A DNA stretch of 64,000 nt from Spirochaetia bacterium (lineage in GTDB: Bacteria; Spirochaetota; Spirochaetia; SZUA-6; Bin103): the NCBI GenBank assembly GCA_965203905.1, contig CBDBDQ010000005.1:1024001-1088000 (forward strand), written 5' to 3'. The notes below the pieces were generated by a model. It was given only the letters and a program-made list of their open reading frames with translations. It ran no database searches and was not told the origin of the DNA. Positions within the stretch are counted from its first letter, which is position 1. Each line of letters begins with the position of its first letter. The position numbers and the translations under genes were made by a program. Of this stretch, positions 9,534 to 28,903 are shown piece after piece.

Positions 9534-9548
9534 CCGGGGCGCGAGCAG

Positions 9549-10381: not shown

Positions 10382-10424
10382 CGGCGCACGGACAGGTCAG
10401 GTAACCTCCGATGCGGGCGGAACC

Positions 10425-11813: not shown

Positions 11814-12358
11814 GCCTCAGTCTGAACGATCAGCTGGAGACGGTCGTCCGCGCCGATCGATTGAGACGTGTCGAATCGAACCGCGTAACTCTCCGCGAAC
11901 GTGAAGCGAACATGTCGATCCATGTAACGGGCGTAAGAGGGCGCGTCACGACGATCCATATCGACAGGCTCGGCGGCCTCTCTGGGCTAAATCAGGGTGA
12001 TTGGAACCAAAGATGTGACTACCTAATGGTCATCGACAAGGAAGACACCTACCACGCCGCATTCATCGAGTTGAAGAAGACCCTTGATGAGGACCACAAA
12101 CCGCGGGAGCAACTGCGTCGATCTCTACCATTCCTGGAGTACCTGCGCTCGCTGTGCTGTATCCATTGCAAGCAAGCCGCTCCGGCAGAAGTCGAGGTCC
12201 GCTACGCGGTGATCGGTGAAAGGGGGCAACAGCGATTCGATAAGCAGGCTGTGAAGGCGAGACCGGGACATCCCGTTTGGACGAAGCCTCACCGTGGGAT
12301 CACGGTCTCAGCTTTCCTGGGGCCGACTGTTCCGCTCGCGGCCCTCGTCGGCACCTAA
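11810..12358 (+). CDS. hypothetical protein with a PD-(D/E)xK-like motif, coupled to the ATPase
   Basis: GTGA overlap with the ATPase stop; RCDYLMV...AAFIELKK...REQL pattern. Confidence 0.7.
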   Translation: MSLSLNDQLETVVRADRLRRVESNRVTLREREANMSIHVTGVRGRVTTIHIDRLGGLSGLNQGDWNQRCDYLMVIDKEDTYHAAFIELKKTLDEDHKPREQLRRSLPFLEYLRSLCCIHCKQAAPAEVEVRYAVIGERGQQRFDKQAVKARPGHPVWTKPHRGITVSAFLGPTVPLAALVGT

Positions 12359-12361
12359 TGG

Positions 12362-13225
12362 TTGGATCGCGAAGTGCGTGGGTTGCCGCCTGAGCGCGAC
12401 CTGTTCTCCTACTACGAGAGCTATGACGAAGAGGGCCGGCTCGCACGTGCTTCGGGGGCGCTGGAATTCGCGCGGGTGCAGGAACTGATCGGGCGCTTCC
12501 TGGCTCCGCCGCCGCAGGTGGTGCTGGATGTCGGCGGCGGTCCCGGCAGGTACGCGTGCTGGCTCGCCGCGAGCGGCTACGAGGTCCATCTCCTCGATCC
12601 GGTTCCGCGTCACGTGGAGCAGGGGCGCGCGGCGTCCGCGGCGCAGCCGGAACATCCGCTGGCCAGCGTCACCGAGGGTGACGCCCGCGCCCTGCCATAC
12701 GAAGCGGAGAGCGCCGATGCCGTACTCCTCATGGGACCGCTCTACCACCTCCCCGAGCGGGCGCAGCGGCTGGCGGCGCTGGGCGAGGCGCACCGGGTAC
12801 TCAAGCCTCGCGGCATTCTGGTCGCCCAGGCGATCAACCGATTCGCATCGCTCCTCGATGGGATCATGCGCGGTTTCATCGACGACCCGGACTTCGTACC
12901 GATCATGCGCCGCGACCTGGAAGCGGGCCGGCACCGCGGGCTACCCGGCACCACCAGGTACTTCACCACGGCGTACTTCCACCGCCCGGACGAACTCAGC
13001 GCCGAGATTCGCGAGTCCGGTTTCCGCGAGCACGGTCTCTATCCGGTGGAGGGCGTCGGCCTGCTGGCCCCGGACCTCGACACGCGCATGGCCGATCCTG
13101 CCAAACGCACACAACTCCTGGACCTGATCCGCTCGGTGGAACGGGAACCGACATTGCTCGGTACCGCCCCTCACTTCGCCGTCATCGCCGCAAAGCAACT
13201 CCGAGTGAGCCCACCGACTGCGTGA
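12362..13225 (+). CDS. class I SAM-dependent methyltransferase
   Basis: Motifs VLDVGGGPGRY, GDARAL, DAVLLMGPLYHL and RVLKPRG. Confidence 0.9.
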   Translation: MDREVRGLPPERDLFSYYESYDEEGRLARASGALEFARVQELIGRFLAPPPQVVLDVGGGPGRYACWLAASGYEVHLLDPVPRHVEQGRAASAAQPEHPLASVTEGDARALPYEAESADAVLLMGPLYHLPERAQRLAALGEAHRVLKPRGILVAQAINRFASLLDGIMRGFIDDPDFVPIMRRDLEAGRHRGLPGTTRYFTTAYFHRPDELSAEIRESGFREHGLYPVEGVGLLAPDLDTRMADPAKRTQLLDLIRSVEREPTLLGTAPHFAVIAAKQLRVSPPTA

Positions 13226-13266
13226 TATGATGACAGGCGGGCCACATAGCGCGACAATGGGCCGCC

Positions 13267-13626
13267 GTGCGCACGTTCAACACCGCCGGCCCGGTGCGGG
13301 CGCACCGGCACTACCAGATCGCGCCGCTGTCGCGGATCGAGCGCGAGTACGCGCTGGGGCGAGGCAGGACCGACCTGCTGATCGTGTGGCCGCAGGGCGG
13401 GCGCGAACGGCGCTACGTGGTGGAGTGCAAGGTGCGGTACGGGGACCTGGAGCGGACCATCGCGGAAGGGATGGCGCAGACGCGGGCCTACGTGGACCGG
13501 TGCGTTGCCGAGGCCGGCCACCTGATCGTGTTCGACCGCTCGCCTGGGCTGACCTGGGAGCAGAAGATCTTCCGCCGCGAGCCGGCGCCCGGCATGGATG
13601 CCCCGGTCACGGTGTGGGGCATGTAA
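13267..13626 (+). pseudogene. internally deleted ATP-binding protein (N-terminal FNTAGP peptide fused to a C-terminal nuclease-like domain)
   Basis: MRTFNTAGPV...HY.IAPLSR is joined directly to IEREYALGRGRTDLL...VVECK...HLIVFDR...VTVWGM. These are the two ends of a roughly 500-aa family I recall; the ATPase core is missing. Confidence 0.75.
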
Positions 13627-13695
13627 GCGTTGCCGATCCGAGGGTCGGGCAGTATGCTGGCGCGAGGAGGTGGGGCGAAACAGGCCACCTGGTTC

Positions 13696-14088
13696 ATGGG
13701 ACGCATCGTTACCTTGGTGATCGTGCAGAACGTGGCGGCAACGCGCACCGTCCGAATCGACGCGTTGGTCGATACGGGCGCCGGCTACCTCACCCTTCCG
13801 CTGGCTTGGAAGCAGCGGTTCGGTACATTTGCGCTGGAGGAAGAGGTTGCGCTGCAGACCGCAACGCAGCAGGTCGTAAGCGGCACCGTGTGCGGGCCGG
13901 CACTGATCCGTATCGAAGGGTTCAGGGCCATTCACGGCGAGGTTCTATTCGTCGAGATGGAGCCGGAAGAGGGCGAATACGAGCCATTGCTTGGGTACAT
14001 TTCCCTGGAGCAGTGCGGTGCGGCCGTTGACTTGGTGGGCCACCGCCTGCTGCCGGTACGGTACGTCGACGCCAAGGCAGCTCACTGA
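13696..14088 (+). CDS. clan AA (retropepsin-like) aspartic protease
   Basis: ALVDTGA catalytic motif and EPLLGYISLE motif. Confidence 0.85.
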   Translation: MGRIVTLVIVQNVAATRTVRIDALVDTGAGYLTLPLAWKQRFGTFALEEEVALQTATQQVVSGTVCGPALIRIEGFRAIHGEVLFVEMEPEEGEYEPLLGYISLEQCGAAVDLVGHRLLPVRYVDAKAAH

Positions 14089-14121
14089 ACGGACCGCGCC
14101 GGCCCCCGATGCTCCTGAGCG

Positions 14122-14967
14122 CTACGACGCTCCCTCGTTCGCCTCGAGCAGCCGCAGGCTCCGTTCCAGTGTCCGCTCCAGCTCGTCACGGCTGAGTGCG
14201 GCGAGATCCGGTGCGAACGGCTCCAAGGAGACCGGCCCGTCGTAACCGAGGCGCCGCAGCCGGGCAATCTGCTCGCGGTTGCCGATCGCGTCGTCGTGAT
14301 CGACCAGTCCCCGGTCTTCGTCCCTGAGGTCGGGCTTCAGCCGGTCGCGGCGCACCCCGGAGGTGTGCACCATACCCACCAGCGAGATGTCCAGGTTGCG
14401 CTCGATCGCGCGTGCGTCGTCCAGCCCCAGGTAGTGGTGGAAGGTGTCGTACACGAGCCTGAAGTTCGCGCCCGATTCGGCGATCGCGCGTTGCGCGGTG
14501 AGCAGCGAGTCGAGTGACGACTCGGGAAACCCCAGCGGCTCGACCAGGCCGGTGACACCGCCGGTTGCGAATATCGGGCCCAGCGCACGCAACGACTGCA
14601 CGGTGTCGGAATAAGCCTGGGAGGCGGTGCGGCCGTCGGCGGGGTCGTTGTTGGGACACAGGACCACGGCGTCGCAGCCGATCGCGCGCGCCAGCGCGAT
14701 GAGCCGGGAGCTCTCCGCCGCCGCAGACTCGCGGTGCGCCGGTGAGTTGAACTTCTGCACCGCGTTGATGGTGGCGACCCTCACCCCGAGGCGCTCGGTG
14801 AGAGACCGAAACTGCTCCGCACCGAACTGGTCGATCTCTCCGTACCCCGGAAGATCGTTGCGCAACTCCACCTGCTCCAGGCCGACGTCGGCGGCCAACT
14901 GCAGAAACTCCGCGACCTCCATCCGCGGGCAGAGCATGCGATTGATCGCGAACTGCTTGCGACGCAT
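14122..14967 (-). CDS. TIM-barrel sugar isomerase/epimerase (IolI/IolH-like)
   Basis: Motifs FAINRMLCP, VELRNDL, TINAVQKFN, LCPNND, GLVEPLGF, DTFHH, DEDR and SLEPFA. Confidence 0.85.
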   Translation of the reverse strand: MRRKQFAINRMLCPRMEVAEFLQLAADVGLEQVELRNDLPGYGEIDQFGAEQFRSLTERLGVRVATINAVQKFNSPAHRESAAAESSRLIALARAIGCDAVVLCPNNDPADGRTASQAYSDTVQSLRALGPIFATGGVTGLVEPLGFPESSLDSLLTAQRAIAESGANFRLVYDTFHHYLGLDDARAIERNLDISLVGMVHTSGVRRDRLKPDLRDEDRGLVDHDDAIGNREQIARLRRLGYDGPVSLEPFAPDLAALSRDELERTLERSLRLLEANEGAS

Positions 14968-15087
14968 TGTCGGCAAGGTAACCGCGGCATGCGCCCACAT
15001 CAATGGCCTCCCCACACGGCGGAGCGCACCGCAGTCCAGCGCTACGACGCTTTGCGACCCACCGCGTATTACGATTACCCTTGGCGT

Positions 15088-15360
15088 ATGACAATGTTGA
15101 GCTTTCGGGTGCAGGAAGCCGACGCACAAGCGGCCACCCGCTGGGCGGCCGCACTGGGCATCGACCGGTCGGACCTGTTGCGTGAGGCACTCCACCGCCA
15201 CCTGGTCAGCCTGGCAGCGTCGACCGAGGGAGACGCGTACGCCCGGTCGCCGCTCGATGCCGGCGAGCTTTCGCTGTCGGCAATCGCCGACTGGGGGCCG
15301 GCCGAGGAGTGGTCCGACTGGTCGGATGCCACGGACCACACAGAGCATGAGACGCGGTGA
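15088..15360 (+). CDS. mazE: RHH antitoxin, MazE2-like
   Basis: MLSFRV...RSDLLREALHRHL...ADWGPAEEWSDW; overlaps the downstream toxin. Confidence 0.85.
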   Translation: MTMLSFRVQEADAQAATRWAAALGIDRSDLLREALHRHLVSLAASTEGDAYARSPLDAGELSLSAIADWGPAEEWSDWSDATDHTEHETR

Positions 15361-15655
15361 AGTCTGGTTCGCGACCACGCCGGGCGGAGATCGGCCGGTG
15401 CTGGTGCTGACCCGCGACCCGGTCGCCACCCGGATCGGCGCCGTAGTGGTGGCCGCACTCACGCGCACCGAACGCGGACTGGTCTCCGAACTGAAGCTCT
15501 CGAATGCGCGGGACGGTGTGCCTACCGACTGCGTCGTGAGCTTCGACAACCTCCATACGGTTCCCCGCACGTCGCTTCGGCGCCGCATCACCCGGCTTGG
15601 CGCGCCGCGCATGGCGGAGGCATGCCGTACCCTCCGCGACGCTCTCGGCTGCTGA
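15347..15655 (+). CDS. mazF: PemK/MazF family endoribonuclease toxin
   Basis: MRRGEVWFATTPGGDRPVLVLTRD...VVVAALTRT...CVVSFDNLHTV. Confidence 0.92.
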   Translation: MRRGEVWFATTPGGDRPVLVLTRDPVATRIGAVVVAALTRTERGLVSELKLSNARDGVPTDCVVSFDNLHTVPRTSLRRRITRLGAPRMAEACRTLRDALGC

Positions 15656-15739
15656 ACAGGATGCCCCGCACGCGTGGACCTGAGCAGATCCAGGCGCGGT
15701 TGTCGCGCAAGCCGCGCCGCCAAGTTCCCAAGGTCCACG

Positions 15740-15903
15740 TGGTGATGACAGGCGCACCACATAGCGCGACAATGGCTCCCGTGCGCACGCTCAACACCGC
15801 CGGGCCGGTGCGCGCGGACCGGCCCTACCGGATCGTGCCATTCCCGGCGATGCGGCCGGCGCCGACCGGCACGGGCGCCCCGGTCACGGGGTGGGACAGG
15901 TAG
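15740..15903 (+). repeat. second, more deleted copy of the 13222-13626 upstream-sequence + ATP-binding-gene remnant
   Basis: tgatgacaggcg..ccacatagcgcgacaatgg...cgtgcgcacg.tcaacaccgccgg.ccggtgcg occurs at both about 13228 and about 15743. The 3' end gccccggtcacggggtgggacaggtag matches gccccggtcacggtgtggggcatgtaa. Confidence 0.85.
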
Positions 15904-18891
15904 ATGGCGCCCGTTCGTCATCCGATCCATCGGCGTCTCGAGGCCGAGGATCTCGTGCGACTGCGCCGGTCATCCGAGCGGCGGCGTTACGCGGCATCGC
16001 AGCGGCGGGGGCGCATCGATCCCAATCCGCACCAGATCGACGCGGTGATGTTCGCCCTGCGGCGGATACCCGAGGGTGGCTGCATCCTGGCCGACGAGGT
16101 GGGGCTGGGCAAGACGATCGAGGCCGGACTGGTGGTGGCCCAGGTCATGGCCGAAGGCGCCGAGCGGATCCTCATCGTCGTTCCCAAACCGCTCCTGGGA
16201 CAGTGGCAGGATGAGCTCTACACCCTGTTCGGCATCTCCGCCCGTGAGGCTGCCGACAGCGAAAGCGATGTCACGGCACCCGGCGTGTTCCTGGCCGGGC
16301 GCGAGTACGCGGGCAGCGCCACCGGTTCGGGACGCCTGGCGGCTGCGCCGCCGTTCGACCTGTGTGTCATCGACGAGGCACACGAGATGTTCGCCGGCAT
16401 CTACCAGCGCTTCGACCGCTACGGCACGTACGACGAAACCAGCGCCGCGGCGCAGACCGCGCACCGGGTGCGCAAGCTGATCGGCCCGGCGCCGGTCCTG
16501 CTCCTGACGGCCACGCCGATTCAGAATTCGCTCGCCGAGTTGTGGGGCTTGCTGCACTACGTCGAGCCGACCGGGACGCTGGTGGGCTCGCTGCCGATCT
16601 TCAAGGCGCTGTTCTGTGAGGGGCAGGATGGCCGGCGGCTGGTTCCCGCGCAGGCCCCCGAGTTGCGGCGCCGGCTCGGCGCAGTGGTGCAGCGGACGCT
16701 GCGCCGCCAGGCGCAGGAGTTCCTGGACAAGCCATTCGTGGGACGCCGCGCCCAACTCTACGAATACGCCATGAGCACCGAGGAGAAGCAGCTCTACGAC
16801 GACGTGACCAACTACCTCCTGTCCCCGAGCCTGAATGCGTTTCAGGGCCGTTCCCGACAACTGCTGCTCATCGGGTTCCACCGCCTCATGGCGTCCTCCA
16901 CGGCGGCGCTGGCGAACAGTCTGGAACGGGTCGCCGAGCGGCTGCGGAGGATGCGCCGCGGTGCGCCCGCAAGCGAGGATCCCCGGGACACCGAACCGCT
17001 CATCACCGATCTCGATGACGACGAGCTGCCGCCCGCCCTGCCGCACATCGAGGATGATCCGGCCGGCGCGCGAGTCGCGGCGGCGCCGGCGCTTGACGCC
17101 GAACTGGCGCAGGTCGAGGACTTCGTGCGCCGGGCCCGTTCCCTGCCGCACGACAGCAAGGCGCACAGCCTGGTCAAGGTGGTGCGCTCCATCGGCGACC
17201 GGTGCGACGGCAACGCCAAGCTGGTGGTGTTCACGGAATCGCTGACCACGCAGGGGTATCTGCGCGACCTGCTGACACGGCACGCGGGACTTCAGGAGGG
17301 CGAAATCACCCTGTTCCGGGGACAGAACGACTCGCCGCGCGCACGGCAGGCGCTGCGGCGCTGGCAGGAAGAGGTCGGCAGGCACCTCCCGGGGCCTCGT
17401 GCTCCGAGCCCGGAGGTCGCCGTGCGGCTGGCGCTGGTGCACGAGTTCAAGACCCGTGCGCGCGTGTTCATCGCCACCGAAGCGGGTGCCAAGGGGCTCA
17501 ACCTGCAGTTCTGCGACACCATCGTCAACTACGATCTGCCGTGGAACCCGCAGCGCATCGAGCAGCGGATCGGCCGTTGCCACCGCTACGGTCAGACGCG
17601 CGACGTGACGGTCGTCAATTTCCTGGCCAGGGACAACGAGACCCAGCGCTTGACGCTGGAGATACTGGCGCAGAAGCTGGACCTGTTCGGCGACGTGCTG
17701 GACATGTCCGATGCGGTGCTGCACCAGGCGCGTTCGCAACGTTCCGAGGAGCTGTCCACGGCCCTCGGCCCGGACTTCGAGCAGCAGCTCAACCGAATCT
17801 GGGAACGTGCCCGTTCGATCGACGAGGTGGAGGAGGAGCTGCGCCGCCTGCGCGAGACCATGGAGGAGCGGCGCCGGGAACTGGAGCGGATCCGGGAGCA
17901 CACGACCGGCCTCATCGAAGCTCGTTTCGACGACTCGGTGCAGCAGGTGTTCCGGCGCATCGCCGAGGAGTTGCCCGCCACGCTGGCCGACCTGGATGCG
18001 GACCTGGAGCGGGTCGTCATCGACTACCTGCGCGCCAACGGCGTAGACCACGCCAGCGAGGCTCAAAACGGCCGGCGGCTGATCCGGATTCCCCCTTCCG
18101 AGCGCCTACCCGGTACGCTGGCGGCGGGGCTCTCCGTCAGCGCGGGTCAGGCGCAGGCGCTGGCAGAGGTCGATGCCCTGCACGTCGCCCATCCGCTGGT
18201 GCGGGCGGCGATCGACGATGCTCGACGCAGGGGAGCGGGAACCTTCTCGGTGCGATTCCTGCTCACGACGCAGGCGCCGGACGAGCTGAAGCAACGTCGG
18301 GGGTCACGCGGACGCCTGGCGCTGAGCCGCATGTCCTATCGCGGGTTCGAGCGCGAGGATCGCCTGATAGCGACCGCCGTGTTCGAAGATTCCGCGGTCC
18401 TGCGGCCGGCCGAAGCGGCGCTGGAGCTGCTCGCCCTGCCGTGCCAGGATCTGCCGGCTCCGCTTGCCGACCTCTCCGTGACCGCCGCCGACCTGGACGA
18501 AGTGGTGGACGAAGCACTGTTCTTCGACCAGGCGCGGGCCGCCGACGCCGAAGCGGAGGCGTTCTCGCGGGCTCTGGACCAGCTCGACCAGTACGTCGAA
18601 GACCGCCTGCTGGTGCTGCGGCGCGGGCAGCGGGAAATCTCGGATCAGCTCAAGCAGGCCGAGGAACGGCGCGACGCGGCGCTGGGCGCCGATGCGCGCG
18701 GCCGCGCCGAAGAGCGCATTCGGCGCCTGGAACGTGAGCTGAGCGTCACCGAAGACCGGATCGAACGGCTGGCGGCCCGCGATGACGGCGACTACGAGCG
18801 TTGGCGGTCGCAGCTTCACCGCCGCCGCTACACGCCGCCGCAGGCTGCACGGCTGTTCGACCTGGAGTTCGTGATCGGCGAAACAGAGTGA
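15904..18891 (+). CDS. SNF2-family (RapA/DrmD-like) helicase with a C-terminal coiled coil
   Basis: Motifs PHQ, LADEVGLGKTIEAG, DEAH, TATP, TEAGAKGLNLQ and NYDLPWNPQRIEQRIGRCHRYGQ. Confidence 0.93.
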   Translation: MAPVRHPIHRRLEAEDLVRLRRSSERRRYAASQRRGRIDPNPHQIDAVMFALRRIPEGGCILADEVGLGKTIEAGLVVAQVMAEGAERILIVVPKPLLGQWQDELYTLFGISAREAADSESDVTAPGVFLAGREYAGSATGSGRLAAAPPFDLCVIDEAHEMFAGIYQRFDRYGTYDETSAAAQTAHRVRKLIGPAPVLLLTATPIQNSLAELWGLLHYVEPTGTLVGSLPIFKALFCEGQDGRRLVPAQAPELRRRLGAVVQRTLRRQAQEFLDKPFVGRRAQLYEYAMSTEEKQLYDDVTNYLLSPSLNAFQGRSRQLLLIGFHRLMASSTAALANSLERVAERLRRMRRGAPASEDPRDTEPLITDLDDDELPPALPHIEDDPAGARVAAAPALDAELAQVEDFVRRARSLPHDSKAHSLVKVVRSIGDRCDGNAKLVVFTESLTTQGYLRDLLTRHAGLQEGEITLFRGQNDSPRARQALRRWQEEVGRHLPGPRAPSPEVAVRLALVHEFKTRARVFIATEAGAKGLNLQFCDTIVNYDLPWNPQRIEQRIGRCHRYGQTRDVTVVNFLARDNETQRLTLEILAQKLDLFGDVLDMSDAVLHQARSQRSEELSTALGPDFEQQLNRIWERARSIDEVEEELRRLRETMEERRRELERIREHTTGLIEARFDDSVQQVFRRIAEELPATLADLDADLERVVIDYLRANGVDHASEAQNGRRLIRIPPSERLPGTLAAGLSVSAGQAQALAEVDALHVAHPLVRAAIDDARRRGAGTFSVRFLLTTQAPDELKQRRGSRGRLALSRMSYRGFEREDRLIATAVFEDSAVLRPAEAALELLALPCQDLPAPLADLSVTAADLDEVVDEALFFDQARAADAEAEAFSRALDQLDQYVEDRLLVLRRGQREISDQLKQAEERRDAALGADARGRAEERIRRLERELSVTEDRIERLAARDDGDYERWRSQLHRRRYTPPQAARLFDLEFVIGETE

Positions 18892-20018
18892 ACGTGGCAC
18901 TCAAGATATTGCACACCGCCGACTGGCACCTCGGCCTGCGGTTCCCCGCGCTGACGCCCGAGCAGGAGAGCCGCTTGACGCGGGCGCGCCTGGAAGTGGT
19001 GGGACGGATTCTCGACCTTGCCGAGAGCCGGCGCGTAGATGCGGTGCTCTGCGCCGGCGACCTGTTCGACGAGCCGCGGCCCGACGAGGAGTGGTGGCAG
19101 GGATTGCTGTCCGAGTTTCAGCGCCGGTCGTGGACGCGACCGGTCATCCTGCTGCCGGGCAACCACGACCCATTGACGCCGAATTCGATCTATGCGGCAG
19201 GCAATCGGTTCCGGCGCGGACTACCCGGTTACGTGCACGTGGTCGATTCCGATGAGTTCGAGTTGGCGCTCGGATCCGGCGCGGTGGTGTACGCGAGACC
19301 GTGCCGGTCGCGTGCCGGCCAGACCGGGCTGGCGGCCAGCCTCCCGGCGCGCGCGGCTGGCGATGAGCGGATTCGCATCGGGCTCATTCACGGCCAGACC
19401 TTCGATCTCCCGGATCATCAGACCACGTTCCCGATAGAACGAAATGCCGCGCTGGAGCGTGGACTGGACTACCTCGCGATCGGCGACACGCACGGATTCC
19501 GCGACGTGCAGCCGGATGCCAGGGTACCGACCATCTATCCGGGAGCACCCGAGGCCACGAAGTTCGGGGAGCACGGTTCCGGCCAGGTCGCCCTGGTCTT
19601 CTTCCCGCGCGACCGGGCGCGGCGGGCACTGGTCGAGGGCGAGGCGGTCGCGGCCTGGTCGTGGCGGGAGGAGACCTGCCGTTCTCTCGCGGAGCTGCAG
19701 CGGCTGCGGGACGAGCACCTGCGCAAGACCGTGCTGAGATTGACGCTGGACGCCCGACTGCCGCTCCACGAATACGACGAGGCGGCACGCATACTGACGG
19801 AACTGAAGGGGTCGCTGTCGTCCCACCCCAAGGTCGGGGTGCTGCTCGCCGATCGCAGTCGGCTGCGCCTCGACACCACCGATTCGTCGCGGTTCACCGA
19901 GGGCTGGCCGGAAGTGCTGCGCTCCGTCGTCCGGCGGCTGAAGGAGCACGAAGCGGACGACCCGGAGAAGGCGGAGCGCGCCCTCCATCACCTCTACGAG
20001 CTGGTCCGAGGGCAATAG
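18888..20018 (+). CDS. Mre11/SbcD-like metallophosphoesterase nuclease
   Basis: Motifs LHTADWHLG, AGDLFD, PGNHD, HG, DYLAIGDTH and YPGAPE; GTGA overlap with the SNF2 stop. Confidence 0.92.
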   Translation: MNVALKILHTADWHLGLRFPALTPEQESRLTRARLEVVGRILDLAESRRVDAVLCAGDLFDEPRPDEEWWQGLLSEFQRRSWTRPVILLPGNHDPLTPNSIYAAGNRFRRGLPGYVHVVDSDEFELALGSGAVVYARPCRSRAGQTGLAASLPARAAGDERIRIGLIHGQTFDLPDHQTTFPIERNAALERGLDYLAIGDTHGFRDVQPDARVPTIYPGAPEATKFGEHGSGQVALVFFPRDRARRALVEGEAVAAWSWREETCRSLAELQRLRDEHLRKTVLRLTLDARLPLHEYDEAARILTELKGSLSSHPKVGVLLADRSRLRLDTTDSSRFTEGWPEVLRSVVRRLKEHEADDPEKAERALHHLYELVRGQ

Positions 20019-20020
20019 CG

Positions 20021-23000
20021 ATGTGGATCAGGCAGGTCTCGGTACGCCACTTCGCCGGTATCCGCTCAGCCGAAATCACCCTCGCACACGGTCTCAACGT
20101 CCTGCACGGACCGAACGAGATCGGCAAGTCGACGCTCGTGGAGGCCATTCGGGCGGCCCTGCTGCTGCAGCACGGTGCATCCGCCGCCCGCGACTTCGAC
20201 GACTGGCACACCGATCAGCCGGCGCAGGTGACACTGACCCTCGAGACCGAGCCACAGCGCATCTGGCGCGTGCGCAAGAGCTTCGGCAAGGGCGTGGATG
20301 GATCGAGCTACCTGGACTTCTCGCGCGATGGAGCGACCTTCACTCAGGAGGCCAAGGGACGTGACGTGGACGGCCGGATTCGAGAGCTGCTGCGCTGGGG
20401 CCTGCCGGCACCAGGCGGCAAGGGGCGCTCCAAGGGGTTCTCCGAGTCGTTCCTGGCGACCACCCTGCTGGCCGATCAGCGCGCCGTCGCCGACCTGCTG
20501 GAGCGCAGTCTCGACGACGACCCCGACGAATCGGGGAAAGGTCGGCTGAGCGACGCGCTGCAGGCGCTCGCCCAAGACCCGGTGTTCCGCAAGGTCGTCG
20601 CCCGCACCCAGGAGCGCGTGGACGAGGCGTTCACCGGCACCGGGCAACGCAGCCGACGTCGAGGATCGCCATGGATGAACCTGCGAGACCAGCGTCAGGC
20701 CGCCGACCGGCGCCGAACCGAGATGCGCCGCCGCGTCACCGAGAGCGACGATGCCCGCGCCCGCGTCGACCGCTGCCGCGAGCAGCTCGACGAAGCCCGC
20801 AGCCGGCTCGACGCTGCGCGGCGCCAGCGGCAACGGATCGACGCTGCCTGGGAACGGCAGCGGGCGCGCGACGCGGTCGGCGCCGAGATCGCCAAGGCAA
20901 CGCGGGAGCGAGACCGGATTCAGGGCCTCCACGACGAACGGGACCAGGCCAGGCGGGAACTGGACGCCGCCGAGCAAGCGGTCGGCGCGGCCGACGCGAG
21001 CATGGCCCAGGCGGCAGAGACGGAGCGGCGCGCACGAGAGTGCCTCGACACCGCTCGCCGGCACCTGGCCGAAGCGGAGAGTGGCGCCGCCCGGCAGCAG
21101 CGTACGATCCGCAGGCAGGAGATCGAGAACCTCCGGCTCAGGAACAGGAATCGGCGAGCCGAAGTGGAGCGGGGCAAGGCGGAAGCGGCCGGTGTGCGCG
21201 ACCTGGAGGCCGCGACCCAGCGGTTGCGGGCGGACCTGGAGGCCAGGTCGCGGAAGCTTGCCGCGACCAGATCGCGCGCCCGGAAGGCTCATGAGCAGGA
21301 CCGGAAGGCCGCCGCCGAGATCAGTCGAATCGCGGGCCAGGTCCTGGGGCTGAAGCTGCTGAGCGGCCGCGAGCAGCTCGCGCGGCTGCACGAGTCGGCG
21401 CGCCAGGCCAGGGAGTTGCAGTCACGGGCGCACGCAAAGTCGCAGCGTGCCAAGGCATTGCGCACCTCGGTAAAGGGTCGCTCCTTGCCCGACTCCGAAC
21501 AGTTGGAAACCCTGCGCGCGCTGCAGACCGATCTTCGGGTCGCGGAACAGGCCTTGCAGGTGGGAGTCTCCGTCGAGATCACACCGAGCCGTCCGCTGTC
21601 CGTTACCACCCGCGCCGACGGCGGACCACCCCGGACCGCCGACCTGACTCGGCCCGAGTCGATGGAAGCGGCCGCACACCTGCGCCTGGAGCTGGAGGGG
21701 GTCGGGCAGATCGAGATTCGGGGCGGGAGCCGCGACTCCCGTGAGCGAGCCTCGCGGCTACGAGCGGAGTGGGCCGCCGCGACCTCCGGATTGTTCCAAC
21801 GGCTCCAGGTCGACAACCTGGAACAGCTCATCGCGCAGTGTCACGCCGGAGAGCGGGAGCTGGCCGCGGCCGACGCCCTGGTGCGCGAGGCCGATCAGGA
21901 ACACCAGCAAGCCGCGGCTCTGATCCAGGATGACGAGTTCATCGCCGAGCGCGGGCGCGAGTTGCAACGGCTCGAACGGCAGGTCAGGGATGATCTCGGC
22001 GAACACGACCTCGAAGAGTTCGTTCGCCGGTGCGCGTCCGGTGACGGGGCCGATACGGCTTCGCTGGAACAGCGGCTCGCCTCCCTGCGCGCCGCTCGTG
22101 AGCGCGGAACGGCGCGCATCGGCGAGCTCCAACAGCAGGTTTCGCGGGCGGAGGGAAGCATCGAGTCCGGGCAGCAGGAGCTGGCAACGCGGGAAGCCGC
22201 GTTCGCGGAGCGCCGCGAGGCTCTCGCCGATCCCTGGGAGTCGGTGCTGGCGCGCGCGGAAGCGGAACTCGATACCCTCGGAAGTGAGGACCGGGGCCTG
22301 GCAAAGGAGCTCGAGGCGCTGGAGACCGGGGCCAGCAATGAAGTGGAACAGGCACGAACCAGCGTCCGACAGGGCGAACAGCGGCTTGCGGTCGCCAGGT
22401 CGCGGAGCTCGAACTGCAGCGAGACGGTCGAATCGGCGCGCGAGAAACGCGACCGGCTGGCGGGTACTGTCGATGAGCGCGCCGCTGCGGTGCGGCGGGA
22501 AGATCTCGCAGCGGCCCGCGCGCACCTCCAGGCGCTGCGCGCCAGCCTCGCGCAACTGCCGGTACCGGAGATGGAAGTCACCGAGCAGGAGCGCGAGCAG
22601 GCGGTGGATGCGGTACGGCGGCTCACCGAGGAGTGCGGCGGCGCGGACGCCGAGCTGCAGAAGGCGGAAGGCGCGCTGCAACAGGTCGGTGGTCACACCG
22701 TCCAGGAGCAACTGGCGCAGGCGAACGAGGCGGTGACGGCGGTCAACCGGCGCGAGGGCGAGATCGAGGTCGAGTATGGCGCCTGGAAGCTGCTGCTCGA
22801 CACGCTGCGCGAGGCCGAGGCGGAGGATGCCGTGCACCTCGGGAAGGCGCTCGTCGAGCCGGTATCGCGGCGCGTCTCCGAACTGACCGGCGGTTCGTAC
22901 GGCGAGGTCACCATCGCCCCGACGCTGTCGACGCAATACATCGAGGCGGCCGGCAGTGAACGCGATCTCTCGCGGCTGTCGGTCGGAACCCGGGATCAGC

Positions 23001-23239
23001 TTGCCACCGTGCTGCGTCTCACCATCGCAGAGAAGCTGGGCAGCACCGTCGTCCTGGACGACCAACTCGTGCAGAGCGATGCATCACGCATGCGCTCGCT
23101 GTACGAGCTCATGCAGCAGTGCGCGAAGGAGTTTCAGATTCTCGTGCTCACCTGCCACCCCGAACACTATCGCCCCCCCGATGGCCGCCCGCTGCACGCG
23201 ATCGACCTCACCGAGCACATCGAGCGCACCCAACCGTAA
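20021..23239 (+). CDS. Rad50/SbcC/YhaN-like SMC ATPase
   Basis: Walker A GPNEIGKST, long coiled coils, signature LSVGTRDQ, Walker B VVLDDQLV and H-loop LTCH; ATG lies 2 bp after the upstream TAG. Confidence 0.92.
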   Translation: MWIRQVSVRHFAGIRSAEITLAHGLNVLHGPNEIGKSTLVEAIRAALLLQHGASAARDFDDWHTDQPAQVTLTLETEPQRIWRVRKSFGKGVDGSSYLDFSRDGATFTQEAKGRDVDGRIRELLRWGLPAPGGKGRSKGFSESFLATTLLADQRAVADLLERSLDDDPDESGKGRLSDALQALAQDPVFRKVVARTQERVDEAFTGTGQRSRRRGSPWMNLRDQRQAADRRRTEMRRRVTESDDARARVDRCREQLDEARSRLDAARRQRQRIDAAWERQRARDAVGAEIAKATRERDRIQGLHDERDQARRELDAAEQAVGAADASMAQAAETERRARECLDTARRHLAEAESGAARQQRTIRRQEIENLRLRNRNRRAEVERGKAEAAGVRDLEAATQRLRADLEARSRKLAATRSRARKAHEQDRKAAAEISRIAGQVLGLKLLSGREQLARLHESARQARELQSRAHAKSQRAKALRTSVKGRSLPDSEQLETLRALQTDLRVAEQALQVGVSVEITPSRPLSVTTRADGGPPRTADLTRPESMEAAAHLRLELEGVGQIEIRGGSRDSRERASRLRAEWAAATSGLFQRLQVDNLEQLIAQCHAGERELAAADALVREADQEHQQAAALIQDDEFIAERGRELQRLERQVRDDLGEHDLEEFVRRCASGDGADTASLEQRLASLRAARERGTARIGELQQQVSRAEGSIESGQQELATREAAFAERREALADPWESVLARAEAELDTLGSEDRGLAKELEALETGASNEVEQARTSVRQGEQRLAVARSRSSNCSETVESAREKRDRLAGTVDERAAAVRREDLAAARAHLQALRASLAQLPVPEMEVTEQEREQAVDAVRRLTEECGGADAELQKAEGALQQVGGHTVQEQLAQANEAVTAVNRREGEIEVEYGAWKLLLDTLREAEAEDAVHLGKALVEPVSRRVSELTGGSYGEVTIAPTLSTQYIEAAGSERDLSRLSVGTRDQLATVLRLTIAEKLGSTVVLDDQLVQSDASRMRSLYELMQQCAKEFQILVLTCHPEHYRPPDGRPLHAIDLTEHIERTQP

Positions 23240-23344
23240 CGCCTCAGCCACTCCCCCAAGCGAAACGCGGCCGGTCTTGGCTGCCACACACGCGATTCGC
23301 TTGACGCCATTTAGGCTCTCAGCGCCATTCCTTCATCGTGGTCA

Positions 23345-23567
23345 TTGTGCTCCGAACTTGACCGCTTACGCGCTCTCTCATGATGATGCGGCCATGATCG
23401 CCGTCCACCGCCCCGCCCCCGGAGGCCAGATTCGCGACGACGACGGCACCGCTCAAGCCCTGATCGAGCTTGGATACACTGTCATCCGCATTCACCACAC
23501 CGACGATTGGGAAGCGATATTCGGCCGCCATACCGATGTCTTCGGAGCGCAGGACGATGTCACGTGA
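23345..23567 (+). pseudogene. degenerate C-terminus of a large DEAD-box/DUF1998 (DrmA/DrmB-type) helicase with a DUF559-like tail
   Basis: ...IAVHRP...QIRDD...LIELGYTVIRIHHTDDWEAIFGRHTDVFG resembles the IYVDGP.H...RD...L...GY.VIRF...DW..I...VFG tail of such helicases. Confidence 0.55.
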
Positions 23568-24609
23568 CGAATACCACCGCGTGTTGCTGGAACGCCTGCA
23601 CGGACAACTCCGATGGGAAAATGAACCGGCCCCGGACTGGACGGTCGACGATCTTGATCTGAGCGAGATCACCCGCACCCTTGATGAAGCAATTCGCCGG
23701 CGTCGAGCGGAAGATCCCGGAACACGGGAACCAACGGAGCTGCTGCGCGGATTCGGCTTGATCCACGACGGCCGGCTGCTCCGCGCCGCGGTCGTGTTGT
23801 TCGGCAGATCCGAGCGTGTGGGCGCGGAGTACCCGCAGTGCATGCTGCGGGTAGCGAGATTTCGCGGTATCGCCCGCACCGACGAGTTTCTGGACAACCG
23901 GCAGTTTCACGGCAATGCGTTCACCCTCCTGGGCAGCGCAGAACGCTTCTTCCGGGAGAGCCTGCCCATCGCCGGTCGCATCGAGCCAGACCTATTCGAA
24001 CGAGTGGATGATCCGCTCTATCCGCCGCCGGCTCTGCGTGAGGCGCTCGCCAATGCCATCTGTCACCGGGACTACTCCATCGGCGGGGGATCGGTGGCCG
24101 CGGCGATCTACGACGACCGCCTCGAAGTCACTTCCTCGGGTCGGCTGCACTTCGGGCTCACACCCGAAGCGCTGTTCGAGCCCCATGAGTCGTTGCCCTG
24201 GAACCCGCTGATCGCACGGGTCTTCTACCTCCGCGGGATCATCGAGCAGTGGGGCCGGGGAACCATCAAGATGCGAGAACTGACGACCAGCGCCGGATTG
24301 CCGGCACCGGAGATCGAGGACGCGGGCGGATGCGTCACGGTGCGCTTCAGACCGGGAACCTACGTGCGGAGTCGTGTCGAGCGGGAGGTAACCGATCGCC
24401 AGCAGGCCATTCTCGCCCTGCTCGCGGGAGTGTCCGACGGCCTTGCCTTACGCGAGATCATCCCCCAATTGGGCGATTCTGTTGTGTGGTGGCAGGTACG
24501 AGATGATTTGCGGATCTTGCGAACACTCGGCTTGGCGATATGCAAAGGCCGCGGCCGTGGTGCGCGCTGGCTGCGCCGGCAGGTTCCATCAGCGGAACTC
24601 ATGGAATGA
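23557..24609 (+). CDS. HATPase_c_4 + wHTH ATP-binding protein lacking the N-terminal AlbA_2 domain (probably 5'-truncated)
   Basis: Motifs LRVARFRG, YPPPALREALANAICHRDY, DDRLEVTSSG, WNPLIARVF and IEQWGRG, then a C-terminal wHTH ending GRGRGARW. Confidence 0.8.
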   Translation: MSRDEYHRVLLERLHGQLRWENEPAPDWTVDDLDLSEITRTLDEAIRRRRAEDPGTREPTELLRGFGLIHDGRLLRAAVVLFGRSERVGAEYPQCMLRVARFRGIARTDEFLDNRQFHGNAFTLLGSAERFFRESLPIAGRIEPDLFERVDDPLYPPPALREALANAICHRDYSIGGGSVAAAIYDDRLEVTSSGRLHFGLTPEALFEPHESLPWNPLIARVFYLRGIIEQWGRGTIKMRELTTSAGLPAPEIEDAGGCVTVRFRPGTYVRSRVEREVTDRQQAILALLAGVSDGLALREIIPQLGDSVVWWQVRDDLRILRTLGLAICKGRGRGARWLRRQVPSAELME

Positions 24610-24830
24610 GACTTCTAATTACTTCCCATTACTTCTCATTTCTTTGCAATGAGTCTATAATTGTATTCCAGAGAATAACCTATCCCATTACTTCTCATTG
24701 CTTCCAATTCTGTCCTATTCCGAGGAATAAGACGTCTCATTCTCAACAATAGAACTCTATTGGCGAGCAATTATCGTTGATATAATGATTTAAGCCACTT
24801 CGTCTTATTCTGTTCTATTCTGTCTTATTC
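24604..24830. repeat. AT-rich non-coding tract with 10-bp periodic repeats and GAATRAGAC boxes
   Basis: acttctaatt-acttcccatt-acttctcatt (24611-24640); cccattacttctcatt occurs twice; near-palindrome gaataagac-gtctcattc (24725-24742); cgtcttattc-tgttctattc-tgtcttattc (24801-24830). Confidence 0.8.
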
Positions 24831-25078
24831 CCAAACTCACAAGGAAAACCCCATCACGGTAACACCGATTCCGATACCTGAGAATAGCGCACCGATACCG
24901 TTTACGAGCAACGGCACATCCGGCACAGCCGCACCGCCCGACGGGTTCACACACCGACGGTCCGCTCCTCCGCGTCGCCGGCACCGGCCCGGCCACGCGG
25001 TACACGGTGTCAGAGCCGCACGAGGTCGGGCCGACACTTGGAAACGTGAGCGCACAAAGTCTCTCTGAATCCGGCACC

Positions 25079-25930
25079 CTATTCCGTGAGCAACACGATA
25101 CGACCCTTGCCACGGCGATCGATGTAATCGACGATCAGCTCCGTGACGGCTGCCAAGTCGACGAACCCGCCAATGCTTTGGATACGGTTCGACCGCAGCT
25201 CCGTTGCGGCCCACTTCAACGTCTTTTTGAGGTCCGTTGCTCGGGTGCAAACCGGGTCTAGGAAACTAGCGCTGTAGCGCCGGCGGCGAAGCAGGTACGC
25301 AATACACAGACTGGCGTGTCGGTAGATGTACTTGGCCTCGTAATGACGCAGTTGTTTCTTCATCACGTCGTGGGCAAGGTCAAGGAGAATACCGCAGGTC
25401 TCATCTTTCATCCGCTCGGTAGCCGCCGCCCGGTATTGGAGAATCCTGGCGAGGGCACGAAGCCAGTCATTGGGACCTTTGAATCCGGTACTCTGAAGGT
25501 GCACAGCCATGACGTCGGCGAATCGGGCAATCTGCTCGGGATCGCGAAGGCAGTTTGCGTACGCATTGAGATGGTGTCGCTTGATAGCGTGGGGTACCGA
25601 GAGCAAGTCCCGTAGCCGCGTCGCAAGCGATTTTTAAGCCGAGCTGAAGTAACCAACGACCCGATAAACTTGCTCATAAATATCTCTGGAAGTCGAGTCG
25701 TCTAACCATGCTACGAGCCGCTCTTCGAACGCGTCAAGCAGTGATCTGTCATTTCCAGCGCCAAACAGTGTCCGTGCCTCATCAAGCACTCCTTCGCTAC
25801 CGACTGCGGTTGCATGATCTGGTGGAGTACGAGCCGCTAAGTTCTCATCCTTCTGCCTCAACAATTCCCGAATCGTCCCGAGATGGTCGTCAACACGCAT
25901 TGCTGTTGGTAGCCTACAATTGGTCAAAAA
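25079..25930 (-). pseudogene. 3' fragment of an unidentified large gene with an in-frame stop
   Basis: ORFs 25634-26569 and 25079-25606 share a frame, separated by one TAA at 25634-25636. The text is protein-like and lower in GC (...AYLLRRRRY...LIVDYIDRRGKG). Confidence 0.55.
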
Positions 25931-25959
25931 AACCTGGATTTCGTATTTCACTGCGCGCC

Positions 25960-26315
25960 AACAGCGGCCGCAGGAGAAGAACAGATAGGGCAGCCCGGCG
26001 CGGCGGAACGGCAGGTGGTCGCTGACGTCGCCGATGTAGTGGTTGAGGGCGGCGATCAACGGCAGCCGCCGCGGCAGCCGGCAGGCCGCCATCGCCGCCG
26101 GCAACCCCGGGTGCGACTCCGCCCCGGTCATGGACAGCAGGTTGCGGATGCGCGGCAGCCGGCGCTGCTTGCCGCCCAGGGGGAAGCGCGCCTCGTGGCC
26201 GGTCAGGTCCCGGATCAGCCCGCAGGCGACGCAGCGTTCGTCCATCCACCGCTCGTGAAAGTGCACGCTGTCCCAGGCGTCGAACTGCGCCGCGCTGGCG
26301 TAGCCCAGCGCCAGC
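25960..26315 (-). pseudogene. internal fragment of an M28-family peptidase-like gene
   Basis: High-GC piece reading DLTGH...LLSMTGAESHP...LNHYIGDVSDHLPFRRAGLPYLFFSCGR (SDH..F...G.P motif). Confidence 0.55.
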
Positions 26316-26316
26316 G

Positions 26317-26473
26317 CCGCTTGCCGCAGCTGACCAGTTTGCCGCGTACCGTGATGCGCCCTTGGTGAAGCTGACCTCCACGCGGATCTGCGTTTCGTCC
26401 CATCCGGCCCAGCGTAGGGTGAGGGTGATAAACTGGTGCAGATGTCGCGTTGGGCGAGGTCTCTCTTGTTCAT
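26317..26473 (-). pseudogene. hsdR: N-terminal remnant of a type I restriction R subunit (EcoAI-like HsdR)
   Basis: Across two frameshifts it reads MNKRDLAQRDICT / ..TLTLRWAGWDETQIRVEVSFTKG / RITVRGKLVSCGK. Confidence 0.75.
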
Positions 26474-27323
26474 CGTTTCAGCGGCGGCCCGGCGCTTGGC
26501 CGCGCCGGCGCTCCACGGCGGGCGGCGCCGGCGGACGCTACGGACGCTTTCGTATGGGACCACCTGCACCCCGCTTCAGTATACTACTCCCGTGCCTCGA
26601 CCGTGCGGCGGGCGACCAGTGGCCGTCGCCGCAGCAATCCAGGATACGAAGCGTTCAACAAGGAACGAGCGGCCCGTGCGCTGAACGACGCGACAGGCCA
26701 ACGGAGCGGCCGATTACCTGCGCGGGGTGCTTATAGATTCAGTCAGAGAGCCAGATCGCGTCATCGGCGCCGAAGTCATTCCGTGCTGTCGCGATGATCG
26801 CGAACCCGGATACCGGCTGCTTCGCGGAGCGCGCGTGGCAGTCCTTGGAACAGGAACTCGACGTTGCCAGCAAGTACGTCGAGGAGTTTGGCGAAACCGC
26901 ATATGCGTCGATGGACGCAATATCCGACGTTGCTACGGATCCACCGAGGGCAACCGGCGGCTACAAACTTCATTCGCAGGGAGCGGGACGCCCTACAACG
27001 GTTGACCGGTGTCTGGCTACTAGCGAGCTTCAGCACGATCGTCAGCAGAAGGCTCTCGCAGCCTACTTGGCGAATCCTTCGGCCGATGTCCATCGGAACA
27101 TACTCGAGCCGACTCGTGACGACGTGGGCGGTCGAAAGTTTGCCGCGAACGTGGCGGCCGCCGTCGGACACATCTCGATGCCAGCAACCATCACCACGCC
27201 CGCGAGCCGGCTCCCGTATGAAGCTGCTCCTCCAACTATATGTCGATCCGTATCTCCGATCAATTCCTTATGACGAAACCCCCGAACAAGCGCCTTGGCC
27301 GCACAGCACGGCACGTCGCTGCT

Positions 27324-27584
27324 TTACTCTGCCGCTCGGGGCAGAGCACCTCCGGCTCTGCCGAAAATGACCTCATCCGAGTCTTCGTCAAGATGCTTGC
27401 TGGTAACGTGCATTTGTCGACGGTAGGGTGGAGCCAACGTGTACCCTCGTGGGGAGAGTCCTTGCTTGCGAAGCGCTTGCAGAAGGTCTCTGGCCTCGCG
27501 CACTTTCTCAAGGTCGACCTTCGGATTGTTTCGCATCACCTTGTCGATATCGACCCCGCCGTCACCGGTAGGCGAGTGGAACAT
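27324..27584 (-). CDS. small hypothetical protein downstream of the SDH protease
   Basis: Overlaps the protease 3' end; protein-like sequence VDIDKVMRNNPKVDLEKVREARDLLQALRKQG...YTLAPPY; start uncertain. Confidence 0.55.
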   Translation of the reverse strand: MFHSPTGDGGVDIDKVMRNNPKVDLEKVREARDLLQALRKQGLSPRGYTLAPPYRRQMHVTSKHLDEDSDEVIFGRAGGALPRAAE

Positions 27585-28497: not shown

Positions 28498-28676
28498 CGC
28501 AGCTGAGCGAACTTCGTTGTAATTGTAATGCATCTGGATCCGGGCAGCATCCAATTGGAGTACCGCCGGCGGAACGCCAACCGCTGTCCGTGAGCAGGCC
28601 GGTAGCGATGACGGCTGGAAGTTGGACCCGGAGCCATGTTGCAGAGCTTGGGGTTGGCAGGGTGGCATGTCAAGCT

Positions 28677-28891: not shown

Positions 28892-28903
28892 TGGAGTCAC
28901 GGC

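Follow-up and report, generated by a model that had tools for sequence, protein, structure and literature searches.

Among the DNA-processing systems described in bacteria, the closest to the one considered here are the two-gene SbcF-SbcE (YhaO-YhaN) pairs, in which the gene for a Mre11-type phosphoesterase of ~377 amino acids (aa) comes directly before that for a long coiled-coil ABC ATPase (AAA_23/AAA_27 type). The same arrangement occurs in a 64,000-nucleotide (nt) stretch of a Spirochaetia bacterium genome (GenBank assembly GCA_965203905.1, contig CBDBDQ010000005.1, positions 1,024,001 to 1,088,000 of the forward strand; hereafter the window), where three intact same-strand genes at 15904-23239 make up a 7.3-kb cassette. 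In this cassette, the nuclease and ATPase genes are directly preceded by a gene for an SNF2-family motor, and the resulting triad is an accessory unit that has spread horizontally and that may serve in defence. The three genes are as follows:

15904-18891, + strand: SNF2-family ATPase (RapA/DrmD-like), 995 aa, ATG start
18888-20018, + strand: Mre11/SbcD/YhaO-type binuclear metallophosphoesterase, 376 aa from GTG 18888
20021-23239, + strand: hook-less Rad50/SbcC/SbcE(YhaN)-like ABC ATPase, 1072 aa, ATG start

An initial annotation of the window had described three intact genes of 995, about 376 and about 1072 aa joined by a GTGA overlap and a 2-bp gap, and this can be read directly in the sequence: the nuclease GTG (18888-18890) overlaps the SNF2 stop codon TGA (18889-18891), and the nuclease ends in a TAG (20016-20018) two base pairs before the ATPase ATG at 20021. 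A second nuclease GTG at 18894 is just as plausible: translation from it gives a 374-aa protein that begins MALKIL, as do most orthologues in other phyla, and the genes would be tightly coupled with either start. The DNA around the locus is GC-rich (about 0.66-0.70), and the three open reading frames (ORFs) are genuine genes rather than chance high-GC ORFs, because intact orthologues were found at 29 other loci.

The domain calls of that annotation also held. Pfam recognises SNF2-rel_dom (81 bits) and Helicase_C (56 bits) in the first protein; Metallophos (52.8 bits) in the second, a calcineurin-type phosphoesterase with an sbcd-type N-terminus; and, at the N-terminal head of the third, SMC_N, AAA_23 (29.1 bits) and, marginally, AAA_27 (PF13514; 22.3 bits at a cut-off of 22). 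The catalytic motifs that it named are present and are, moreover, invariant across the orthologue alignments. Its term "Rad50/SMC" for the ATPase can be made more exact: the protein is of the hook-less YhaN/SbcE type and has no CxxC motif.

Comparison with described systems

A first comparison is with the SbcF-SbcE pairs themselves. SbcE is reported to have "a unique central domain" (PMC2811018), and the triad ATPase likewise has a central domain and no zinc hook, a likeness in general layout. Relatives of the triad nuclease at 24-38% identity form pairs of the same kind with an ATPase of ~880 aa, for example on Rhizobium plasmids, where the two genes are annotated "DNA repair exonuclease" and "AAA family ATPase" and occur without a helicase. 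The triad clade differs from these pairs, which consist of two genes and no dedicated helicase, in having SNF2 upstream, in the length of its ATPase (~1070-1800 aa) and in a clade-specific nuclease insertion at the predicted SNF2 contact.

A second comparison is with canonical SbcCD and Mre11-Rad50, with which the triad shares the metal motifs of the nuclease and the head motifs of the ABC ATPase. Nuclease residues D12, H14, D58, N92, H93, H168, D200 and H202 (motifs GDxxD, GNHD and GDTH) are invariant in 12/12 sequences, as are the Walker A (GPNxxGKS), signature (LSVGTRDQ), Walker B (LDD) and D-loop (SD) motifs in 11/11 ATPase orthologues. Among solved structures, the nuclease is related to T. 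maritima Mre11 and E. coli SbcD, and the ATPase, in a profile search, to the heads of Rad50 and RecF; a protein atlas places the ATPase among AAA_23/AAA_27 clusters. However, the similarity is limited to the N-terminal 90-95 residues (residues 3-95 in the nuclease) and a weak match of the C-terminal head. The nuclease scores 67.2 bits with TIGR00619 (sbcd; cut-off 77.65), over profile positions 1-88 of 252 only, and 41.6 bits with NF008206 (SbcD; cut-off 450); in fact, none of the three proteins reaches an NCBIfam equivalog cut-off. SbcC and Rad50 carry a CxxC zinc hook at the apex of the coiled coil, and this motif is absent from all 11 aligned triad ATPases. Their Walker B motif, LDD, has Asp at the position of the catalytic Glu, and the H-loop His is replaced by Arg in 5/11 orthologues.

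The place of the zinc hook is taken in the triad ATPase by a small beta domain, and the protein can be laid out as follows:

20021-23239, + strand: ATPase layout, N-head at ~aa 1-220, coiled coils, central beta domain, C-head at ~aa 880-1072
21566-21721, + strand: apical six-stranded beta domain of the ATPase, ~aa 516-567, at the Rad50/SbcC zinc-hook position

An AlphaFold2 model of aa 455-650 (predicted local distance difference test, pLDDT, 91.5) has six strands at model residues 62-113 between long helices, and this apical block, midway along the coiled coil, is conserved in 20/21 ATPase orthologues. A Foldseek search with the domain returned no match at E<=0.001; small matches to Ig-like domains of alphavirus E2 were set aside as probably generic. 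The wide VIA-align search with the apical piece gave only coiled-coil-type matches (Z 10.6 or less), including Wadjet JetC, the Smc hinge and LmuAB, all of them below the level that the tool regards as meaningful for helical models. Variants of the ATPase were also seen: at one locus (L130:5345-5962) a hydrophobic segment that looks membrane-like stands where the apical domain would be, and at two others (L131:7106-12523 and L133:8409-13817) the ATPase is ~1800 aa long. Two nuclease relatives, P0170 (1338 aa) and P0197 (675 aa), are much longer chains with the nuclease domain at one end; they may be fusions with the ATPase or with SNF2, or may result from gene calls that were merged.

A third comparison concerns the motor, which has two main parts:

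15904-18891, + strand: SNF2 protein layout, ATPase core at ~aa 36-690, C-terminal domain at aa 690-995
17971-18888, + strand: SNF2 C-terminal domain, aa 690-995 (306 residues), the predicted nuclease docking site

The motifs GLGKT, DEAH, TATPxQN and QRIGRxHRYxQ are invariant in 11/11 aligned orthologues. The top hidden Markov model matches are to DrmD of DISARM, over the motor and the C-terminal half: 394.7 bits with the PADLOC model PDLC02619, 391.7 bits with NCBIfam DrmD_b NF038318 (cut-off 950) and 227.9 bits with NF038317 (DrmD; cut-off 610). The triad differs from DISARM in that its SNF2 protein lies far below these cut-offs and is partnered by a Mre11/Rad50-like pair. DISARM comprises DrmA/DrmB (DUF1998/MZB) and DrmC genes, and no DrmA, DrmB or DrmC was found among the neighbours by Pfam or PADLOC; the MZB/DUF1998 matches in the genome, at C5:4.11 and 4.36 Mb, are >3 Mb away from the triad at 1.04 Mb. 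A precedent for joining such a motor to an existing system is ietHAS, into which a DrmD-like SNF2 protein was reportedly recruited and in which it is essential (PMC13069673). DrmD-like SNF2 motors are recurrent add-ons in defence systems, and besides DrmD the defence-associated SNF2 motors BrxH, DpdE, HmaA, ZorD and ietH invite comparison. With ZorD the likeness is slight (52.8 bits with equivalog NF041790, cut-off 1500); the triad protein differs in having no fused nuclease, and no ZorABC genes occur among the window neighbours. A genome-wide EH_Signature search gave no match, and its controls were silent too.

RapA is the closest solved relative of the SNF2 protein by sequence, and the RapA equivalog NF003426 is its next-best NCBIfam match after DrmD (145.6 bits, cut-off 576). 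The AlphaFold2 model of the C-terminal domain (pLDDT 88.7) is an alpha/beta domain with a long helical hairpin and a terminal strand, and the only structure to which Foldseek matches it significantly is that of E. coli RapA, in its C-terminal part (E 1.5e-5, TMq 0.37). The N-terminal part of RapA binds RNA polymerase. This part has no counterpart in the triad protein, in which the motor motifs start at about residue 36.

Defence complexes derived from SMC/Rad50 proteins provide a fourth comparison, since Lamassu (LmuACB) and Wadjet sense DNA ends or topology. A preprint on Lamassu (bioRxiv 10.1101/2025.03.14.643221) describes an altered Walker B in LmuB, with Gln for Glu and slow hydrolysis that is thought to serve sensing, and a Mre11-like LmuC. 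The Walker B Glu is likewise replaced in the triad ATPase, by Asp where LmuB has Gln. The differences are that the triad nuclease keeps all its motifs and is presumably itself the effector, that the cassette has no LmuA-type effector and that SNF2 is present. Scores with the LmuB models are 29.9 bits or less, and GajA/PtuA match only at the P-loop end. Finally, HerA-NurA-Mre11-Rad50 clusters resemble the triad in encoding a motor ATPase with a Mre11/Rad50 pair; they differ in that the triad motor is an SNF2 double-stranded DNA (dsDNA) translocase instead of a HerA hexamer, with no NurA-like second nuclease.

Run against PADLOC-DB v2.0.0, the triad is not recognised: the models of no single system match all its components, and the nuclease matches 0/5027 models. 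No published description of the triad was found in the full-text literature, and supplementary candidate-system lists may include it. The one paper with all the relevant terms (PMC7824862) was rejected, since it treats SbcCD and SNF2 separately, in jumbo phages. The parts of the triad are of known kinds, and what is new is their fixed combination, the replacement of the hook and the predicted contact between SNF2 and nuclease.

Conservation of the three-gene unit

Loci were sought with the nuclease gene alone, in one-genome-per-species contigs and in metagenome contigs. The SNF2 gene lay directly upstream in 23/23 assessable loci, and the long ATPase gene downstream in 22/22, among 24 nuclease-seeded loci at 45-58% identity; one contig (L126) was too short for either count, and another (L127), which ends within the nuclease gene, was left out of the ATPase count. 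Six of these close relatives (47-55% identity) came from the one-genome-per-species contigs, all with both partners in place and with SNF2 genes 52-56% identical. Their hosts are Terriglobales, Candidatus Acidiferrales and Bryobacterales (all Acidobacteriota), Candidatus Rokuibacteriota, a "delta proteobacterium" metagenome-assembled genome (MAG) and Nannocystaceae (Myxococcota). The metagenome contigs supplied 18 more (45-58%), with SNF2 upstream in 17/17 and ATPase downstream in 16/16 assessable cases. Thus, the SNF2 linkage, which the initial annotation had proposed to check, is kept across phyla, and the triad clade spans at least three named phyla plus metagenomes. In a cluster look-up that gave hardly any names, three members were labelled Gammaproteobacteria MAGs, and five more loci in the window's own family, found with the SNF2 protein, carry all three genes.

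At each of these loci every gene is a single open frame, and the junctions overlap or nearly abut. The flanking genes differ from locus to locus. Pairwise identity matrices of the three proteins, from which near-identical congeners were excluded, correlate at r 0.95-0.97, a value reached in 0/2000 permutations. The triad thus passes as a single cassette, both by descent and by exchange, while its flanks change. The clade is also rare: of 1.84 billion representatives at 50% identity, no more than 110 match the nuclease at E<=1e-30, many of them fragments. When the three proteins were searched against the genome by tblastn, neither the nuclease nor the ATPase had a paralogue there. A 34% identical SNF2 protein in another family genome (G019) was set aside as paralogous, since no SbcD/SbcC-like genes adjoin it.

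The distant nuclease-ATPase pairs keep different company. SNF2 is directly upstream in only one of 18 such loci (L141); at a second (L047) the sole trace is a weak match to SNF2 on the opposite strand, ~7 kb upstream. In L141 (2791-13803), the nuclease-ATPase pair, at 35% identity, comes after genes of 1116 aa (methylase-like), 226 aa and 940 aa (SNF2), which may represent an independent or older SNF2 association. At two other loci (L144:1634-8513 and L145:6918-13795) a 402-aa gene and HerA (DUF87) precede a pair at 29% identity, with a large DNA methylase nearby, much like a HerA/(NurA?)/Mre11/Rad50-type cluster on bacterial metagenome contigs. GmrSD lies upstream of yet another distant pair (L137). 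Since the distant pairs have other partners or none, the nuclease-ATPase pair looks modular, and the triad clade looks like the branch that fixed an SNF2 partner.

Predicted contact between motor and nuclease

A complex of three chains was predicted, in which the SNF2 C-terminal domain was the partner scored and the other two chains were the nuclease and the apex piece of the ATPase. The ipSAE of the three runs was 0.00, 0.73 and 0.75 (median 0.73), and the best of 3 controls scored 0.00. That mark is reached by 58/80 solved complexes and by 2/110 mismatched pairs, counts that are approximate for a three-chain job with custom alignments. The partner pLDDT was at least 70, agreement in contacts between the runs was at least 0%, and replacement of the nuclease abolished the score. 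The predicted interface involves the hairpin on the SNF2 side (aa 862-910 and 957-979; piece residues 173-221 and 268-290) and residues 2-6, 25-49, 236-256, 279-280 and 310-313 of the nuclease.

The contacted nuclease surface is specific to the triad clade, in that 13% of its positions have the same consensus as in the two-gene clade vs 34% elsewhere, and residues 310-313 are an insertion that the two-gene clade lacks. To our knowledge, and with sequence searches of the PDB with the nuclease and SNF2 protein also considered, there is no solved SNF2-Mre11 complex, so that it seems unlikely that the score reflects memory of a solved structure. Docking of the SNF2 C-terminal helical hairpin on the nuclease is thus supported in silico only.

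Distribution and genomic setting

In the window, the cassette sits within a variable genomic island, as judged from comparison with congeners and from Pfam matches of the flanks:

10340-28920: variable genomic island with the cassette, 18.6 kb

The island is bordered by core genes, with oxaloacetate decarboxylase beta and a 161-aa ORF on one side and nadB/nadA on the other. In two congeners (G009 and G010) the sequence at 9537-10340 is joined directly to ~28922 and the island is absent, and a third (G007) has only a part of it, without the triad. Nucleotide similarity to the triad-bearing congeners starts and stops at the cassette itself (15904-23250).

The cassette was found in 6/24 genomes of the family, that of the window included. 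Full-length SNF2 orthologues occur in 5/23 other family genomes, comprising 4/10 congeners and 1/13 genomes of a sister genus, and 0/400 other genomes sampled from the phylum had the nuclease at E<=1e-40. Canonical sbcD, scoring above the TIGR00619 cut-off over the whole profile, is present in 16/24 family genomes and is a separate gene; because of this, and because the triad is patchy, the nuclease-ATPase pair is not the vertically inherited core sbcCD of the lineage, an alternative that the initial annotation had left to be checked. Two family genomes (G001 and G014) carry both the triad and canonical sbcCD, and four (G000, which is the genome of the window, G004, G005 and G006) the triad only. 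These four are close kin, so the loss of the canonical genes in them may be a single event. In G001, canonical sbcCD (L112, G001:C1:1538000-1557000) lies in a 9.4-kb segment that is cleanly missing at G000:C5:330070-330256; it is, in other words, an indel polymorphism in this genus.

The gene neighbours of the cassette at other loci include some with a known role in defence or transfer. A complete Zorya ZorABCD lies directly upstream in the same orientation at one locus (L135:47-6723). ZorABC lies beside the cassette on the other strand, divergently, at a second, unrelated locus (L036:1715-5821), with an AIPR gene downstream and no ZorD-sized ORF in the 1.7 kb of locus beyond ZorC. At L123:2362-6926 a type IV coupling protein and a TrwC relaxase are encoded ~100 bp upstream on the same strand, at L032:13446-18400 a TrwC relaxase and coupling protein abut the cassette, and at both loci the cassette is carried on a conjugative element. 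L032 also encodes a 1536-aa helicase with a REase_MTES_1575 domain, and L123 a YprA/MrfA-type helicase.

In the window itself, the neighbouring system immediately upstream, which is not part of the cassette, is the following:

10425-12358, + strand: PD-T4-4-like two-gene defence system, in a stretch of GC 0.56

The first of these genes matches PADLOC PD-T4-4_A over its full length (337.4 bits), and the second (182 aa) matches PDC-M47B (37.9 bits) and, weakly, PD-T4-4_B. The initial annotation had placed the triad in a defence island whose other genes had decayed. The variable island beside a PD-T4-4-like system bears out the first part, with the proviso that flanks elsewhere are mixed and in many cases metabolic; the decay of the neighbours is not demonstrated, and the PD-T4-4-like pair next door looks full-length. 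Overall, the neighbourhood evidence for defence is suggestive, not decisive.

Other island genes, by Pfam, are an S-adenosylmethionine (SAM) methyltransferase, AP_endonuc_2, HATPase_c_4 and an SDH-type protease. The HATPase_c_4 protein (23470-24609) has no detected AlbA_2 domain, an SDH/ClpP-like protease (27562-28701) is among the island or border genes, and a PIN-domain gene (32460-32846) lies just beyond the island. A 602-aa ORF on the minus strand (14122-15930) probably represents only a ~280-aa AP_endonuc_2 protein, since the Pfam and congener matches cover residues 320-601 only; the other 0.9 kb, before the SNF2 gene, lies outside these matches. A repeated unit of ~294 nt (13234-13626) contains a small ORF with high GC content at third codon positions and a weak PDDEXK_9 match (E 9e-4); it has ~15 diverged copies in the genome, and in G001 and G004 copies lie on both sides of the triad. 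A 267-aa ORF at 13227-14030 is a wrong-frame artefact, the true unit being in the frame of 13234-13626. A 98-nt repeat precedes both this small ORF (13228-13325) and the SNF2 gene (15743-15839), the two copies being 88% alike over 98 nt, and the second contains a candidate promoter:

15745-15773, + strand: promoter-like site, ~130 nt 5' of the SNF2 start, within the 98-nt repeat; a consensus match only

The consensus promoter scan found 2 sites where 0.3 were expected, and Rfam and tRNA scans of the window gave no matches.

Possible functions of the triad

The favoured reading, with chances that appear about even, is that the triad is an uncatalogued, DNA-end-directed translocase-nuclease defence module, acting against phages or plasmids. 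The three genes would then constitute one self-contained, mobile cassette coding for a single DNA-processing machine. At its core, the Mre11/SbcD-type nuclease would be clamped by the long hook-less Rad50/SbcE(YhaN)-type ABC ATPase, and by homology this pair would capture a DNA end or hairpin between its ATP-engaged heads and cut it under the control of ATP. The RapA/DrmD-type SNF2 dsDNA translocase would dock on the nuclease through its C-terminal hairpin. In a first step, the ATPase heads would sense a free or protein-blocked DNA end, for example on a phage genome after injection, on a linear plasmid or on an intermediate of the rolling-circle or conjugative kind. The SNF2 motor would next draw the DNA through the complex or strip off end-protecting proteins, and the nuclease would finally degrade the DNA processively. 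We infer the substrate, the order of events and the defence role alike.

A more far-reaching form of this proposal, which is tentative and somewhat short of an even prospect, is that the triad represents a new type of immune system, with an SNF2 translocase mounted on an active hook-less Mre11-Rad50 and an Ig-like beta domain in place of the zinc hook, that is, a DNA-end-triggered shredder. If true, it would be a prokaryotic forerunner of the eukaryotic partnership of remodeler and MRN, turned to defence. It is also a possibility that the cassette serves as an alternative effector arm for membrane-sensor systems, since Zorya lies beside it at two loci and, at one of these (L036), no ZorD was seen in the 1.7 kb of locus beyond ZorC.

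Several observations weigh against a defence role. The characterised relatives are repair proteins: this holds for SbcCD and Mre11-Rad50 and, as reported, for SbcF-SbcE of B. subtilis (PMC2811018). No canonical sbcD or sbcC was found in the genome of the window, and their absence from 4/6 triad-bearing family genomes fits a repair function that has been replaced. The 105 flank proteins examined at 25 loci are mostly ordinary metabolic or unknown proteins, with a known defence gene at a minority of loci and no background control for the comparison. Plasmid and phage collections, including 72,556 plasmid records, held only distant relatives at 34% identity or less. The cassette contains no methylase, self-marking or self/non-self component, so that it would have to tell self from non-self by DNA ends or structures, in the manner of RecBCD, Lamassu and Wadjet. 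With Asp for the catalytic Glu and a variable H-loop, the ATPase may be slow at ATP hydrolysis. As for the predicted contact, one of the three complex runs failed to produce it against a calibration that is itself approximate, and the contacted nuclease surface is no more conserved than the rest (0.57 vs 0.69).

Several of these points lend themselves to a second explanation, the main rival, unlikely on balance but deserving of weight, in which the triad is an accessory module for processing double-strand breaks or hairpins. The SNF2 motor would clear nucleoid proteins, RNA polymerase or end-bound proteins for resection, and the module would be a bacterial counterpart of remodeler-assisted MRN/MRX and of archaeal HerA-NurA-Mre11-Rad50 that can replace SbcCD. 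SbcE(YhaN) and SbcF(YhaO) of B. subtilis, the closest characterised pair, are reported to act in break repair and competence (PMC2811018), and in the window's genus each genome that is at least 90% complete has either the triad or canonical sbcCD. The resemblance of the motor to RapA, a housekeeping protein, in sequence and C-terminal fold would also suit repair, as would a Ku gene in one flank and the HerA and 402-aa genes that adjoin distant pairs, as in archaeal repair clusters. Yet the SNF2 protein scores best with DrmD models from defence and falls far short of the RapA cut-off. The distribution is patchy and crosses phyla, and the cassette lies in a variable island here and on conjugative elements beside defence genes elsewhere. 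Further, the four triad-only genomes can owe their loss of sbcCD to a single event, and two other genomes retain both systems.

A third explanation, which is improbable, would make the triad conjugative cargo in the service of mobile elements, processing transferred or competing DNA, for example in excluding a rival plasmid or integrative and conjugative element, or acting on the element's own ends. Its position right after the coupling protein and TrwC relaxase genes in L123, in the same orientation, and abutting both in L032, is what would be expected of such cargo, and so is the spread of the cassette as a unit. However, conjugation genes accompany the triad at only 2/25 flanked loci, the ORFs of the island that were scanned yielded no integrase, relaxase or transposase, and the plasmid records contained no close homologue.

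Finally, the distant pairs, usually without SNF2 (1/18) and alone on Rhizobium plasmids, might suggest that an ordinary SbcCD-like pair simply has an SNF2 gene next to it, with no shared function. This is hardly credible, given that all 23 assessable loci of the clade keep the order of overlapping or nearly abutting genes through ~50% divergence and changing flanks, that the genes co-diverge and that a contact is predicted.

Significance of the triad

Mre11-Rad50/SbcCD are among the most studied DNA-end machines, and SNF2 proteins are the engines of chromatin remodelling, and a natural bacterial unit joining the two was not found in the searches made here. The cassette, at 7.3 kb, is small and self-contained and would be easy to transplant, and both the predicted contact and the beta domain are directly testable. 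If the triad acts in defence, it would add an effector logic, an active Mre11 nuclease with a dsDNA translocase, that is unlike those of Lamassu, Wadjet, Gabija, DISARM and Zorya. If it acts in repair, end resection with the help of a motor could be studied in a simple bacterial model, and canonical sbcCD would be losable where the cassette is present.

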